DNA of 14,061 nucleotides, taken from a virus. Taxonomy: Duplodnaviria > Heunggongvirae > Uroviricota > Caudoviricetes. The notes beneath the pieces were generated by a model, which made no database searches, had not been told where the DNA came from, and saw only the letters and a program-made list of their open reading frames with translations. A program made the translations under genes and the position numbers. Location: the IMG/VR virus record IMGVR_UViG_3300046786_000272, positions 1-14,061 of that record. One strand, 5' to 3'. Positions 1,805 to 14,061 of this stretch are shown here, piece by piece (position 1 is the stretch's first letter; the number at the start of each line of letters is the position of its first letter).

Positions 1805-1825
1805 GGCCCCGAAAGGGGCTTTTTT
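1805..1825 (+). terminator. Rho-independent terminator
   Basis: GGCCCC-GAAA-GGGGCT stem with a GNRA loop, followed by a T run (1820-1825), 3 nt after the stop codon at 1801. Confidence 0.93.
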
Positions 1826-1847
1826 ATTACGTACTATAAAGTAAGCA

Positions 1848-1862
1848 TTGATAAATACTATA
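1848..1862 (+). promoter_or_regulatory. Putative T4-type late promoter TTGATAAATACTATA
   Basis: An identical 15-mer occurs at 4256-4270, also intergenic. It resembles the T4 gp55 late consensus TATAAATA(ctatt). The core ends 7 nt before the ATG at 1865. Confidence 0.8.
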
Positions 1863-8221: not shown

Positions 8222-8298
8222 TGCGTGAAAATGAATATCCAGTATATCCTGAAGATGATGGGTATGACACGTTTAAAAACCCATATAGTCCTGTATGA
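8221..8298 (+). CDS. 25-aa peptide MRENEYPVYPEDDGYDTFKNPYSPV (missed by the ORF track)
   Basis: The ATG overlaps the dps stop (TAATG, 8219-8223) and its TGA overlaps the next start (ATGA, 8295-8298), filling the gap exactly. Confidence 0.75.
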   Translation: MRENEYPVYPEDDGYDTFKNPYSPV

Positions 8299-9320
8299 GA
8301 GCAACAGAATTCATTACTGAAGAAGCAAAAGCCGCCAAATATAACGGCTTAGTTATGAAGTACGCCTTCAACGATAGTGCTTTGATAATGAAAGCATTTG
8401 AACAAGGTAGTCCAATTGCTTATGTTAAGTTTGTCAAAGAAGACAAAGAGTTATATCCACAGGATCTTTGGGTCAATGATGACTATCGCAACAAAGGCAT
8501 TGCTAAGTCAATGTATGACTATCTAAAGAGTGAAGGTTATGTCATCAATAGAAGTCACGACCAAACTAAAGCTGGCACCGGCTTCTGGGATAAACACCGA
8601 GGTGAAGATGCGTATGTTTGGGAAGATGAAGACGTAGATGAAGATATGTCACGTAGAGGCTTCTTAGGAGCATTAGGCGGCGCGGCTATGGCAGCCGCCG
8701 GATTAGATGCAGAAGCAAAACCTAATGCTATTAAACCTAAAACTAAATCACCTTCACAAGATGCTATTCAACAAGCAAAGAAGCAACAAAATGTTAAACC
8801 AGCATCACCTACAAAAGATCCACAAGCAGAAGCAATGTTGTATAGAACAGCAAAAGCTAGCGGAATGAAGGGTAGTGAGTTAGCACAGTTCTTAGCACAA
8901 ACAAAACATGAGTCTTGGGATCACAGCAGATTACAAGAGAAATCAATCGGTGATCCTAATCAGTACTTTGCTAAGAAGTATGATCCTACGTTAGCACCTA
9001 AGACAGCAAAGATTTTAGGTAATAAGCATCGAGGCGATGGTGCAAAGTATCACGGTCGCGGATTCATTCAGTTAACTGGTAGAGATAACTATCGCATGGC
9101 TAGTGAAGCATTGGGATTAGATTTATTGAATCATCCTGAAATAGCAAGTAAGCCAGACGTTGCCGCAAAGATTGCAGTGTGGTATTGGAATACAAGAGTT
9201 AAACCAAAAGTTCAAAACTTTGAAGATACAGTAGCAGTTACAAAAACAATTAACAATGCGATGTTTGGTTTAGAGGATCGACTTGCAAACTTTGTAGATT
9301 ATAAAAAAAGAGTAGCATGA
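8295..9320 (+). CDS. GNAT acetyltransferase-like domain + internal Tat signal peptide + GH19 (chitinase/lysozyme) peptidoglycan hydrolase fusion
   Basis: N-terminus MRATEFITE. GNAT motif A WVNDDYRNKGIAKSMYDY (8472-8504 core). MSRRGFLGALGGAAMAAAGLDAEA at 8646-8717. GH19 motifs FLAQTKHES, YHGRGFIQLTGRDNY and AAKIAVWYW. Confidence 0.88.
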   Translation: MRATEFITEEAKAAKYNGLVMKYAFNDSALIMKAFEQGSPIAYVKFVKEDKELYPQDLWVNDDYRNKGIAKSMYDYLKSEGYVINRSHDQTKAGTGFWDKHRGEDAYVWEDEDVDEDMSRRGFLGALGGAAMAAAGLDAEAKPNAIKPKTKSPSQDAIQQAKKQQNVKPASPTKDPQAEAMLYRTAKASGMKGSELAQFLAQTKHESWDHSRLQEKSIGDPNQYFAKKYDPTLAPKTAKILGNKHRGDGAKYHGRGFIQLTGRDNYRMASEALGLDLLNHPEIASKPDVAAKIAVWYWNTRVKPKVQNFEDTVAVTKTINNAMFGLEDRLANFVDYKKRVA

Positions 9321-10918: not shown

Positions 10919-11872
10919 ATGAAAAAACTTTTATTTGCCCTATTACTATTACCTAGTCTAGTATTTGCTTGGCAACCAACAAAACCTATCACTGTTATAT
11001 TCCCGAATGGACCGGGCGCAGGGAACGAAATCTCTTTCTTCTTTGTAGCAGATATCGTTAGTGAGAAGACAAAGGTACAGTTTAATAGAGAACATCGTCC
11101 AGGAGCAGATGGTAATCTAGCAATGAATCACTTTGCTACTGTACCCGCTGATGGACACACTGTTGCAGTTCCAGCATGTAATAGTCAGTGGGTTACAGGT
11201 GAAGTATGGTACCCACAGACATTAAAGTACAATATCTTTGACTTTGAGCCTGTTGCTAACATAGCACGTAGTCCATTAGCATTCTGGGCACATCCTAGTA
11301 GTAAAGTCAACACACCGGAAGATTTGATTAGAGAGATTCGTGAAAAGAAACGTCCTATCAACTTTGCTATTGGTGGCGGTGGTCACAAACTAGCAGTTGA
11401 ATACTTAACTGACAAACTTAATGTTCCTGGTGGCGATAAAGTACAGACAGTTATGTACAAGGGCCCTGCTCAAGCACTTATGGATACGATGGGAGGACAC
11501 GTTGAATTCAGTGTTACTCCAGTAGGTGTAGGTTATCCTCACGTTAAAGCAGGTAAACTTAAATTAATCGGTCTTGCTAGTGAAGTTCCACTTAAAGGAT
11601 TAGAATCAGCACCATTGATGAGCAAGTATGCTCCGGGATTAAATCTATACGGGTGCTGGAACTTAGTACTACCAAAAGGCACTCCGCAAGATATACAAGA
11701 TTGGTATCATAACAATTTTGTTCCGGCAATTCGTAGTAAAGAAGCAAAAGAAAAATTTGATGACAATCAAATGTTCATAACTACTAAAGAGCACACACCT
11801 CAAGGCGTACATGCAAGCATGGCAGTATTGCGTAGAGAGTGGCAACCAATCGCAAGAAAGATAACACCTTGA
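10919..11872 (+). CDS. tctC: Bug/TctC family tripartite tricarboxylate transporter substrate-binding protein
   Basis: Signal peptide MKKLLFALLLLPSLVFA. Motifs WQPTKPITVIFP, HRPGADG, PADGHT, YKGPAQALMDTMGGHVE, VKAGKLKLIG and PKGTPQDI. Confidence 0.9.
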   Translation: MKKLLFALLLLPSLVFAWQPTKPITVIFPNGPGAGNEISFFFVADIVSEKTKVQFNREHRPGADGNLAMNHFATVPADGHTVAVPACNSQWVTGEVWYPQTLKYNIFDFEPVANIARSPLAFWAHPSSKVNTPEDLIREIREKKRPINFAIGGGGHKLAVEYLTDKLNVPGGDKVQTVMYKGPAQALMDTMGGHVEFSVTPVGVGYPHVKAGKLKLIGLASEVPLKGLESAPLMSKYAPGLNLYGCWNLVLPKGTPQDIQDWYHNNFVPAIRSKEAKEKFDDNQMFITTKEHTPQGVHASMAVLRREWQPIARKITP

Positions 11873-12492
11873 AATATATTTTCGTAGCCGGCGCACCCGG
11901 CTCTAAATGGTCTAGTGTAGTAAAGAATATTTACTACAGCCCTAGCATAGACCAATCTGATTACAGTGATGAACGCACGTATTATCATGATGCTAGTGGC
12001 AGTATGCAATTAATGCACTTAGGTGCATACTTTGATCCTGGCATGGAGTTTGGTGACCTGCTAGCAGACATGCAGAAATACACTAAAGAAGAACTAGAGA
12101 AAGAATTTGATAGACCTTTCTCGGGTGAGGGAGTTAGAATCATCAAGAGTCATGTGTTTGCAAACAATATCGACTTCATTAAAAAGACATGGCCTGACTC
12201 TCCTATTGTTTTAGTGCATCGTGATAATGACAGTTGTTTGGGATGGTGGGTTAAATGTGGTCATTTTGATATAACCTATCCTAAATATGATATATACTAT
12301 AAAGACTTACGTACAATGGCATCTATCATTGAGAAACAAAACAAAGATATTCAAGATGCATCCGACAAACATAAGCCGTTTAGAGTTTATAATAATAGTA
12401 GACTAGCGTTGATTCTTGGAATCGCACAACCACCAGATGAATATAAGCAGAGTTATATAGAAAACGATATAGAGGTATCAGTAATATGTTAA
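11869..12492 (+). CDS. Sulfotransferase-fold protein with atypical PSB loop
   Basis: YIFVAGAPGSKWSSV (PSB-loop position), RIIKSH and WPDSPIVLVHRD (3'-PB-like R). The start is probably the TTG at 11869, overlapping the tctC stop (TTGA), rather than the ATG at 11839. Confidence 0.6.
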   Translation: MKYIFVAGAPGSKWSSVVKNIYYSPSIDQSDYSDERTYYHDASGSMQLMHLGAYFDPGMEFGDLLADMQKYTKEELEKEFDRPFSGEGVRIIKSHVFANNIDFIKKTWPDSPIVLVHRDNDSCLGWWVKCGHFDITYPKYDIYYKDLRTMASIIEKQNKDIQDASDKHKPFRVYNNSRLALILGIAQPPDEYKQSYIENDIEVSVIC

Positions 12493-13172
12493 GTAATTGG
12501 GAAGAAACAAAAAAGCGCAGTAAGTATCACTTTGACCAGTTCAAATTAGATCCTCAGCAAGATAAAGTAACAGCATTAGGTAAGATTGTAGCAGACTTTA
12601 CCCCTGAACTAAAGGACATTATCAAAAATGCAAAGCCTGCAACATGGCGCACACGTGGTAAAGTTGGAAAGTCTAGACCTGAAGAAGAACTAGCTAGCGA
12701 AGACTATGACTTAGAAAAATTTGGTTACGGCAAAGATTATCAGATAACTCATTTGAACTGGGAAATCCCTGAGAAGCTACAGCGCATTAGCAAGCTATTT
12801 GGACTACAAGACTGTATGGATCGTATTCACGTACAAATGCCGGGCGAAGTATGGAACCTACACTTAGATAAGTTAGAAAAATGGTTACCTGAAGAGACAT
12901 GGAGAATCATGAGAATACAGCTTCAATTGACTGATTGGGAGCAAGGTCATTTTTGGAGTTACGGTAACTATACACATCAATTTTGGCGTGCGGGCGATGT
13001 AACTACATTTGATTGGCAAAACATCCCCCATAGTACAGCGAATGCAGGACATAATCCTAGAGTAACATTTCAAATGACAGGTATTGTAACTGAACAAACT
13101 AATGAATTTCTTAATCGCTTAAGTAGATTCGGTAAACATCAACTAGAGTTAAAAGATGCAGGCTGGTTCTAA
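12486..13172 (+). CDS. 2-oxoglutarate/Fe(II)-dependent oxygenase (Asp/Asn beta-hydroxylase-like cupin)
   Basis: RIHVQMPGEVWNLHLD (HxD), then FDWQNIPHSTANAGHNPRVTFQMTG (distal His and the 2OG-binding Arg). Confidence 0.8.
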   Translation: MLSNWEETKKRSKYHFDQFKLDPQQDKVTALGKIVADFTPELKDIIKNAKPATWRTRGKVGKSRPEEELASEDYDLEKFGYGKDYQITHLNWEIPEKLQRISKLFGLQDCMDRIHVQMPGEVWNLHLDKLEKWLPEETWRIMRIQLQLTDWEQGHFWSYGNYTHQFWRAGDVTTFDWQNIPHSTANAGHNPRVTFQMTGIVTEQTNEFLNRLSRFGKHQLELKDAGWF

Positions 13173-13593
13173 AAGAATATTAATCATGGGTCTTCCTGGA
13201 TCAGGTAAGACTACATTAGCAAAGAGAATTATAGCTAAGATGGAGTCTAGTAATAGGACTGTCACCTGGCTAAATGCTGATGAAGTACGTAAAGAATATG
13301 ATGATTGGGACTTCTCAATTGAAGGCAGGATACGTCAAAGTCTACGCATGAATGAGTTAGCAAAGAAGGCCGAAACTGAGTTTGTAGTTTGTGATTTTGT
13401 ATGCCCTTTGCCTGAAATGCGTAAGAATTTTGACCCGCATTTTATCATCTGGTTAGACACCGTTACATCAAGTCAGTATAAAGATACTGATAACATGTTT
13501 ATCAGACCCGAAGGTTACACCTTCAAATTGCTTGCTAAAGATGCTGAAAAGTGGGGAGATTACATAGCGATAAATATTATGAACACACCTTAG
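13156..13593 (+). CDS. cysC: Adenylylsulfate (APS) kinase-like P-loop kinase, short form
   Basis: RILIMGLPGSGKTT (Walker A), WLNADEVRK...DFSIEGRIRQSLRM and VVCDFVCP align with CysC motifs. The RDPKGLY lid segment is not present. Confidence 0.72.
   Translation: MQAGSKRILIMGLPGSGKTTLAKRIIAKMESSNRTVTWLNADEVRKEYDDWDFSIEGRIRQSLRMNELAKKAETEFVVCDFVCPLPEMRKNFDPHFIIWLDTVTSSQYKDTDNMFIRPEGYTFKLLAKDAEKWGDYIAINIMNTP
13569..13576 (+). promoter_or_regulatory. Putative late promoter GATAAATA inside the 3' end of cysC, upstream of the structured element
   Basis: Same 8-mer core as the four intergenic copies at 1850, 4258, 10884 and 13677. Confidence 0.6.
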
Positions 13594-13675
13594 GACCGGT
13601 ACTCGTTACCGTAGTGTGGGCCGGCTGCTGGCCTGATGTACGAATTCGCTACTCGGAAGTCTAAAGTGAGCATTT
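13579..13675 (+). ncRNA. Candidate structured non-coding RNA (unassigned)
   Basis: 13593-13671 is 45/79 G+C in an AT-rich genome. Stems: CGGTA/TACCG (13597-13611), GGCCGG/CTGGCC (13619-13633) and TAGTG/CGCTA (13612-16/13647-51). It is flanked by two late-promoter motifs. Confidence 0.5.
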
Positions 13676-13676
13676 T

Positions 13677-13684
13677 GATAAATA
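13677..13684 (+). promoter_or_regulatory. Putative late promoter GATAAATA
   Basis: Same core as the other copies; 2 nt before the ATG at 13687. Confidence 0.65.
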
Positions 13685-13686
13685 GT

Positions 13687-13953
13687 ATGAACAAGAAAAT
13701 AATTTATACAGCAAAATTTGGCAAAGAATTCTTAACATGGCATCAGTGGGTTTACACTACTAGGTCAGAAGAAGAAATTGACGAATATGAGACTATAGAC
13801 GAGCAACCAGGAAAAATGACTCCCGGTAAAGAAGCATTATTCAAAGCTTGGATAAAGGATCAGGAAATATTAGCACATACAGTTTATGTAGACACTGATG
13901 ATGACTTTATGAAATATTTTGAGTTTACTATTTTTCCACAAGACGAAACATGA
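13687..13953 (+). CDS. Hypothetical 88-aa acidic protein
   Basis: The start is placed at ATG 13687 (MNKKIIY) directly after the promoter motif; the track start at 13636 would run through the structured element and promoter. ATGA coupling to the next ORF. Confidence 0.6.
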   Translation: MNKKIIYTAKFGKEFLTWHQWVYTTRSEEEIDEYETIDEQPGKMTPGKEALFKAWIKDQEILAHTVYVDTDDDFMKYFEFTIFPQDET

Positions 13954-14061
13954 TAGCAGATGACATTTTAACAGAATCAGCAACTAATGAATTAGCCAAA
14001 AGGCTACCGTCATTACGTAAACACAACTATGATACCATTGATACATTAATGCGTGACATAG
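13950..14061 (+). CDS. 3'-truncated hypothetical protein with capsid-targeting-like N-terminus (MIADDILTE|SATNELAKRLPSLRKHNYDTIDTLMRDI...)
   Basis: ATGA overlap with the upstream stop, and an open frame to the window end. Confidence 0.7.
   Translation, partial: MIADDILTESATNELAKRLPSLRKHNYDTIDTLMRDI

Follow-up and report, generated by a model that had tools for sequence, protein, structure and literature searches.

The subject of this analysis is a short RNA element at 13577-13671 on the + strand of a stretch of viral DNA that we call the window, the first 14 kb (14,061 nucleotides, nt) of the 82-kb IMG/VR virus record IMGVR_UViG_3300046786_000272 (CheckV completeness 23%). We show that the element belongs to a family of structured RNAs that is conserved and single-copy in a clade of uncultured freshwater jumbo phages, which have genomes of up to ~350 kb and T4-type late-promoter-like boxes. 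Covariance model R1 recognized the whole motif in the window with 113.8 bits (E = 2e-30). A sequence-only reading of the window had already proposed a structured RNA at this place, and the proposal held: homologues were abundant, and all three of the pairings CACAC/GTGTG, CGGTA/TACCG, and GGCCGG/CTGGCC that it had drawn covary among them. Its suggestion to collect homologues and check them for covariation thus paid off, with helices supported beyond controls.

Homologues were reached along several routes. Gene X (12486-13172, + strand; 228 amino acids [aa], no Pfam or PHROG family) is the commonest upstream neighbour of the element. At least 138 relatives of this gene were found in IMG/VR, on contigs of up to 352 kb, and the element comes immediately after the gene X stop codon in most of the 80 loci retained. 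Relatives of gene Y, which lies downstream of the element in the window, led to three loci (L024-L026) with the same ~95-nt element right after the gene X stop codon, without the kinase gene and without the left promoter-like box seen in the window. Further variants came from a 16-nt word search, and a three-motif pattern was present on at least 120 viral contigs in IMG/VR. Among 185,579 prokaryote genomes, the pattern occurred only on two contigs (L251 and L252) of Bacteroidota metagenome-assembled genomes, which are probably binned phage DNA. The bins are assigned to Lishizhenia and Haliscomenobacter, one of the contigs is 183 kb long, and the Bacteroidota affiliation is a weak hint at the host phylum. 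GenBank phages gave no match by DNA (962 nt) or by gene X protein, so there is no cultured relative.

The fold described by R1 consists of five helices, P0, hp1, P2, P3a, and P3b, all on the + strand. P0 pairs 13584-88 (CACAC) with 13614-18 (GTGTG) and encloses the invariant loop CCUUAGGACC (13588-97) together with hairpin hp1; four of its five pairs have both partners exchanged among relatives (ACAC/GUGU, ACUC/GAGU, UCAC/GUGA, AUUUGG/CCAGAU). The hairpin hp1 (13597-13611; CGGUA, loop CUCGU, UACCG, with arms at 13597-601/13607-11) is optional, being present in 47 of 90 distinct variants, and it covaries where it occurs (CGCAA/UUGCG, CCGUA/UACGG, CUUUG/UAAAG). P2 (13619-13633; GGCCGG/CTGGCC at 13619-24/13628-33) carries the invariant apex C-GGCUGCU-G; 99-100% of its alignment cells pair, and its three outer pairs covary, MAFFT-only alignments included. 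P3 is made up of P3a (13635-37/13659-61), an internal loop GUA/GAA, P3b (13641-43/13653-55), and the apical loop AUUCGCUAC (13644-52). All six modelled P3 pairs change on both sides and the length of the helix varies, while UCGCUAC is found in the loop of 70 of the 90 variants. The element closes with a single-stranded 3' tail, AAAGUGAGC (13663-13671, + strand), from which only two of the variants collected via gene X, without motif selection, deviate and which is retained where no promoter box follows. The X-linked set thus contains four near-invariant unpaired segments, CCUUAGGRCC, C-GGCUGCU-G, AUUCGCUAC, and RAAGUGAGC, and the consensus of the element can be written CCUUAGGRCC...GGCUGCUG...AGUGAGC. 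One relative (L088:3187-3299) has an extra GAGC-GNRA-GCUC hairpin in addition to a normal 3' part of the element; the same kind of hairpin occurs in L083 and L084, there with an unrelated 3' part ending in a terminator-like hairpin.

The single-sequence fold of the window copy was not better than that of shuffled sequences (z = -0.83 on the + strand and -1.5 on the - strand). Therefore, the sequence alone does not establish the structure, and the homologues supply the evidence. The 91 nt between the two copies of a flanking repeat have a G+C content of 52.7%, somewhat lower than the 57% first reported for the interior, and the flanks have ~31-41%. In a plain MAFFT alignment of 37 variants, P2 and P3 were predicted by RNAalifold, and 9 of their 12 pairs showed compensatory changes. 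Loci derived from gene X gave 62 R1 matches, one per locus and all on the gene strand. When the 38 distinct X-linked sequences were fitted to the model, 95.4% of the cells paired and 17 of 22 pairs changed on both sides, a level reached by none of 500 shuffles. The corresponding set of 90 distinct sequences had 93.8% of cells paired and 413 double-change cells, against 33-54% pairing with slid partners. Using MAFFT only, 28 variants lacking the hairpin were 82.4% paired, compared with 62.9% in shuffles; P2 and P3b stood at 100%, and P0 and P3a were lower because their register shifts with small indels. The element is also more conserved than its neighbour, with a median aligned identity to the window of 90% versus 76% for gene X. 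On this comparative evidence, we consider that the element is a structured non-coding RNA whose helices are kept by compensatory substitutions beyond controls.

The strand on which the structure is kept also bears on whether the conserved unit is a site in DNA, for example an origin, a signal for recombination or packaging, or a protein-binding site. The element does occur once per genome and at a gene-order breakpoint, and it contains the palindromic words CCTNAGG and GCCGGC, as a DNA site might. Its helices, however, are kept via compensatory changes while their sequence and length vary, which is selection on a folded single strand. In the strand test, 93.8% of cells paired on the + strand versus 86.8% on the - strand, with 146 G-U pairs versus 27 A-C pairs on the gene strand. 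We regard a DNA-level function in place of an RNA as very improbable.

A scan of all column pairs for additional covariation returned only the known helices and no tertiary pairing, and several contacts that look attractive in the window sequence were lost on comparison. The long-range closing stem of the single-sequence fold (CAC..UUAGG with UCUAA..GUG) cannot form in variants whose 5' strand is ACUC, AUUUGG, or CCUG and is therefore not conserved. The proposed pseudoknot between the first hairpin loop, CTCGT, and the 3' GTGAG does not survive either, since hp1 is absent from 43 of the 90 variants and its loop varies; likewise, the competing TAGTG/CGCTA pairing would need a GUAG partner that only 14 of the 90 variants have. 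A 6-bp pairing of the P3 loop (UUCGCU) with the tail (AGUGAG) is possible on paper. It shows no double covariation, L166 lacks the loop motif, and a 10-bp P3 with a linker of 0-2 nt makes the intramolecular contact implausible and sterically doubtful. No conserved pairing partner of the tail was found, and in the 82-kb record its only complement in trans, GCTCACTT at 63526, lies inside an open reading frame (ORF) beside an internal Met codon, so we treat this match as chance. The invariant CGGCUGCUGGC (13621-13631) is complementary to the universal 530-loop region of 16S rRNA. We regard this complementarity as a curiosity: by a rough estimate, a chance 11-mer match to rRNA would occur in about one of five such elements, and one clade has GGCUACU at this place.

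Each genome appears to hold one copy of the element. The 82-kb record of the window has one strong R1 match, as does a 352-kb record rated 100% complete with one match, and four other large records have one each. Of ten other records searched, nine gave one strong match and the tenth, a 63-kb fragment, gave none. Where the element does not come after gene X, the genome still has exactly one copy, which lies next to unrelated genes at a distance of 8-25 kb. Of 160 distinct contexts, 138 have an upstream gene on the same strand whose end adjoins the motif. The stop codon on this side is either 3-13 nt short of CCUUAGG or, in 26 cases including the window, supplied by the TAG of the motif itself, and the next ATG follows the tail at a median distance of 23 nt. 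The genes themselves vary on both sides of the element: the upstream one is gene X in 42 cases and one of many others elsewhere, and downstream there are gene W (26), gene Z (23), a TctC-like gene (15), gene Y (13), and others. A TAAATA box is present within 72 nt after the element in 81 of 159 contexts.

In the window, the element is bracketed by two near-identical 17-mers, as first noted: the left copy, GATAAATATTATGAACA, at 13569-13585 and the right copy, GATAAATAGTATGAACA, at 13677-13693 differ by one mismatch and lie 108 nt apart from start to start, and two such matches were found in none of 200 window shuffles. The sequence-only reading took them as traces of a mobile 108-nt cassette, which would have moved by recombination between promoter repeats or been inserted with a 17-nt target duplication. 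The significance of the repeat within the window and the presence of the element at different loci in different genomes would fit such a history, but the origin of the left copy does not. In this 17-mer (+ strand), the kinase codons A-I-N-I-M-N run into the 5' edge of the element, and a late-promoter-like box GATAAATA lies at 13569-76. Its ATG does open the four-codon MNTP-stop frame that had been pointed out, and it is in frame with the ORF at 13156-13593, which ends ...AINIMNTP-TAG at 13591-93. In two kinase-bearing relatives (L059 and L064), a kinase-nucleotidyltransferase fusion occupies the same slot as the window kinase. The kinase homology extends to ...EKWGDYIAINIMN, DNA identity resumes exactly at ATGAACACACCTTAGG, and the junction in these relatives reads TTTAAAATGAACAC, without the box. 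The window codons GCG ATA AAT ATT ATG AAC align with A-A-H-I-L-D-N in L059 and G-F-H-L-K-M-N in L007. Given this codon-for-codon alignment, the left 17-mer is made up of native kinase sequence and the element edge, and thus the likeness of the two 17-mers reflects neither a duplication nor a target-site scar.

The right 17-mer (+ strand) contains the same box GATAAATA (13677-84) and the start of gene Y, whose ATG is at 13687 and not, as originally placed, at 13684. Relatives carry the element with the right box only or without any box. A TAAATA box lies within 40 nt upstream in only ~10 of 160 contexts and the 17-mer is repeated in none of them; a search for a flanking direct repeat around homologous copies found the left box absent in nearly all of 159 contexts. 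In three relatives (L097-L099), gene X, a box, and gene Z follow one another without the element, and the same genomes keep it ~10 kb away; there was no sister genome of the window among those compared. The element has no terminal inverted repeats and is single-copy, not dispersed as a mobile cassette or a miniature inverted-repeat transposable element would be. From these alignments we judge that the 17-nt direct repeat is not a mobility footprint and that the kinase end happens to resemble the box and ATGAAC with which gene Y starts; a mobile cassette is barely credible. The case carries a caution, as a significant direct repeat around an element can come from a gene end and a gene start that are merely similar.

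The boxes resemble a known type of promoter. The late promoter of phage T4 is TATAAATA, and a similar box, TGATAAATA, recurs in the record just upstream of ORF starts (1851, 4259, 10885, 13678, 48021, and 61593). The box-plus-ATG arrangement at the right repeat is likewise seen before the genes at 1851, 4259, 10885, 48021, and 61593, and GATAAATA has 11 copies on the + strand and 2 on the - strand. Several of the TGATAAATA boxes stand only 2-7 nt before an ATG codon, so that T4-like spacing would put the transcription start at or after the ATG; either leaderless mRNAs would be common in this phage, or the spacing would differ, or the box would have another role. A scan for sigma-70 promoters found no more sites than in shuffles.

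We infer that transcription of the element runs in the same sense as that of its neighbours and, in most phages, reads through from the upstream late gene. In the window phage and a few others, a start at the late-type box would also be possible; with T4-like spacing, the transcript would begin at ~13582, at the conserved 5' edge. Independent transcription, as proposed in the sequence-only reading, is therefore plausible for the window phage, given that a promoter-like box also lies directly upstream in a few relatives. In one of them, L193, the gene upstream is divergent and the intergenic region has a promoter-like box with the element immediately behind it; as no co-directional gene precedes it, the element is not bound to the 3' end of an upstream mRNA.

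The search for known RNAs was negative. No Rfam 15 family matched the window at gathering thresholds, which answers a check that the earlier reading had recommended. With E values up to 10, the only match touching the element was mir-1976, 17 nt on the - strand with 13.9 bits against a gathering threshold of 71, which is attributable to chance; Rfam likewise returned nothing on the element in four divergent variants. ARAGORN found 0 tRNA or transfer-messenger RNA genes in the window and in the 82-kb record.

Based on the conservation pattern, our favoured reading, to which we give somewhat less than an even chance, is that the element may be a self-contained RNA module in late transcripts, recognized via its invariant unpaired segments. 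The four segments would be read by a conserved macromolecular partner, which could be a protein of the phage or of the host, RNA polymerase, or the ribosome. The module would probably be released from longer late transcripts, and it would be neither a terminator nor a regulator of one particular gene. We prefer this reading to a terminator or mRNA stabilizer because the element is single-copy, its loops are more conserved than coding sequence, it lacks a hairpin followed by a U-tract, it is kept on relocation, and L193 has it without an upstream gene. On a more far-reaching reading, which we hold to be possible but not likely, the family would be a new giant-phage RNA class that acts as a self-cleaving ribozyme, a ligand-binding RNA, or a subunit of a phage ribonucleoprotein, and not as passive mRNA structure.

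The position of the element would also fit a cis-acting role in the punctuation of late mRNAs. As a target of nucleases, a barrier to exonucleases, or a terminator of an unusual kind, it would form or protect the upstream 3' end, and it would shield the late promoter that follows. A stop codon comes immediately before it in 138 of the 160 contexts, and about half have a TAAATA box 8-12 nt past the tail. In two relatives (L043 and L044), the slot after gene X holds an ordinary terminator and a box. The genome of the window has an ordinary terminator of its own at 1806-1825 (GCCCCGAAAGGGGC followed by six T's), which precedes AAAGTAAGC-ATTGATAAATA (window 1806-1858 in all), and this pair closely resembles the tail and box of the element, AAAGTGAGC-ATTTTGATAAATA. 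The tract after the tail is U-enriched and G-poor. It begins only past the 9-nt unpaired tail, however, and 13100-14061 has 0 terminator-like sites, that is, no G+C-rich hairpin with a U-tract within 0-2 nt. A 350-kb genome with many operon ends has a single copy, the loops are conserved above coding sequence although terminators and stabilizer hairpins have no need of this, the element persists in genomes where it has moved away from gene X, and in L193 there is no co-directional gene whose 3' end it could serve. Punctuation is thus unlikely, in our judgement.

We also weighed a self-cleaving ribozyme or a ligand-sensing, riboswitch-like RNA within late polycistronic transcripts. The architecture is typical of such RNAs: over ~80-110 nt, the helices covary and differ in length, one peripheral hairpin is optional, and the nucleotides of junctions and loops are invariant. 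The neighbours vary as they do for phage-borne self-cleaving ribozymes. No Rfam class matches, so this would be a new class. The covariation scan found no tertiary pairing. A switch would be expected to have a conserved class of downstream gene and an alternative terminator or sequestering helix, and we found neither. As for ribozymes, the fold is unlike the double-pseudoknot layout of the hepatitis delta virus type (reasoned from the order of the helices), and the comparison with other known classes consists of the negative Rfam scans. A new ribozyme or sensor of this kind is quite unlikely.

Several points weigh against the favoured reading of a released, recognized module. There is no terminator or other 3'-end signal after the tail, so a discrete small RNA would require processing. 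Two relatives (L083:817-918 and L084:3187-3288) keep only the 5' third of the element (GAACCCACCUUAGGGCC and the hairpin), and therefore the module may be divisible. The left GATAAATA box has CG where the other boxes of this genome mostly have TG before ATAAATA. Two alignments (A3 and A4) were fitted to the structure of the model, which inflates pairing, and L131-L210 were collected with a pattern that itself fixed three of the four motifs, so that invariance counts only in the X-linked set. Finally, contigs from RNA libraries cover only 13725-13875 and 13932-14061, in genes Y and Z, and contigs cannot show RNA ends. These contigs are from a freshwater metatranscriptome run and are identical to the window, but the run may contain DNA and they are not proof of transcription. 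None of the RNA runs searched covers the element, and the uncovered part proves nothing.

Several known systems offer partial parallels. Orphan structured RNA motifs of phages have been found by comparative genomics (Weinberg et al. 2010, PMC2864571), and 10,006 structured RNA candidates have been reported from IMG/VR (Fremin et al. 2023, PMC10690425). Like the element, these motifs are intergenic, supported by covariation, known mainly from uncultured viral contigs, and without assigned function. The element is an orphan structured phage RNA of this kind with no matching Rfam 15 model, and it may be among the 10,006 unnamed candidates of the latter study.

The rnaC and rnaD RNAs of T4 (species 1 and 2) are also small, non-coding, without assigned function, and present in one copy each in a T4-type phage. 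They lie in the neighbourhood of lysozyme and internal-protein genes, and the window encodes a GH19 lysozyme domain at 8295-9320. In rnaD, the loop of the first hairpin (L130:7144-7171, ACCGG-GUCGCUA-CCGGU), GUCGCUA, is close to the P3 loop AUUCGCUAC, with an R1 score of only 7.4 bits. Overall, neither sequence nor structure is similar, and homology was rejected, as R1 with filters off gave at most 8.3 bits across the T4 tRNA-rnaC-rnaD region. The T4 RNAs differ in that they are located in a tRNA cluster and have tRNA-like parts, whereas the available fragment of the window genome has no tRNA genes. Among T4-type phages, PeSL cassettes, which Arbiol and colleagues are said to have described in 2010, are modules of a promoter and a stem-loop at gene boundaries. 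They resemble the element in being structured, adjoining a phage promoter, and marking a boundary of variable gene content. In contrast to the single-copy element with its four helices, invariant loops, and late-type boxes, they occur many times per genome, with early promoters and simple hairpins.

Two further comparisons concern transcription. The put RNAs of phage HK022 act in cis and make RNA polymerase resistant to termination. They are compact multi-hairpin RNAs with conserved unpaired bases, occur once or twice per genome, are transcribed together with the genes downstream, and are indifferent to the identity of these genes, in all of which the element is alike. They have no sequence relation to it, and a promoter box often separates the element from the next gene; that the element might act on polymerase in a put-like manner is pure conjecture. 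Rho-independent terminators share its placement after a stop codon and before a promoter, and in one relative a true terminator takes its slot. They differ from the element, which has conserved loops, is single-copy, and lacks a hairpin followed by a U-tract.

Giant phages are a large and mostly uncultured store of biology. Small RNAs that combine strong covariation, near-invariant loops, and strict single copy are rare, and RNAs with such properties have repeatedly proved to be ribozymes, riboswitches, or parts of ribonucleoproteins. The element is well defined, since it measures ~80-110 nt, its consensus is clear, and its distinct variants number at least 90; it can be synthesized directly. 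It is also a compact marker for its phage clade.

Nearly all genes of the window are on the + strand. Between gene X and the element lies a truncated P-loop kinase gene (13156-13593, + strand; Pfam APS_kinase 1.5e-10, phrog_10255 'kinase' 5e-25, aligned to L059), whose TAG stop codon (13591-93) is inside the CCUUAGG of the element. This gene is a variable passenger. In relatives it is a 267-aa kinase-nucleotidyltransferase fusion (L059:3171-3974), of which the window kinase is the N-terminal domain. The second domain, which carries the motif GRWQPWHxGH in the fusion, has been deleted in the window, probably between short ATGAAC-type repeats. The layout of the fusion resembles NadR, which joins a ribosylnicotinamide kinase to a nicotinamide mononucleotide adenylyltransferase, and therefore this 'cysC-like' kinase gene may serve salvage of nicotinamide adenine dinucleotide rather than sulfate activation. 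Just upstream of gene X, at 11839-12492, there is a weak sulfotransferase-like match below the Pfam cut-off; it lies near an APS-kinase-like (adenosine 5'-phosphosulfate kinase) fold, and a sulfation module is possible. A TctC-like binding protein precedes it (10919-11872).

Downstream of the element, gene Y (13687-13953, + strand; 88 aa) has no assigned function and is one of the variable neighbours, followed by gene Z from 13950. The gene most consistently linked to the element is an 88-aa gene of phrog_12534, which lies no more than 4 kb downstream in 107 of the 160 contexts; in 26 it is the immediate downstream neighbour. One such gene, at G000 16721-16987 (L250:2822-3088), matches phrog_12534 and also phrog_639, annotated as 'transcriptional regulator'.

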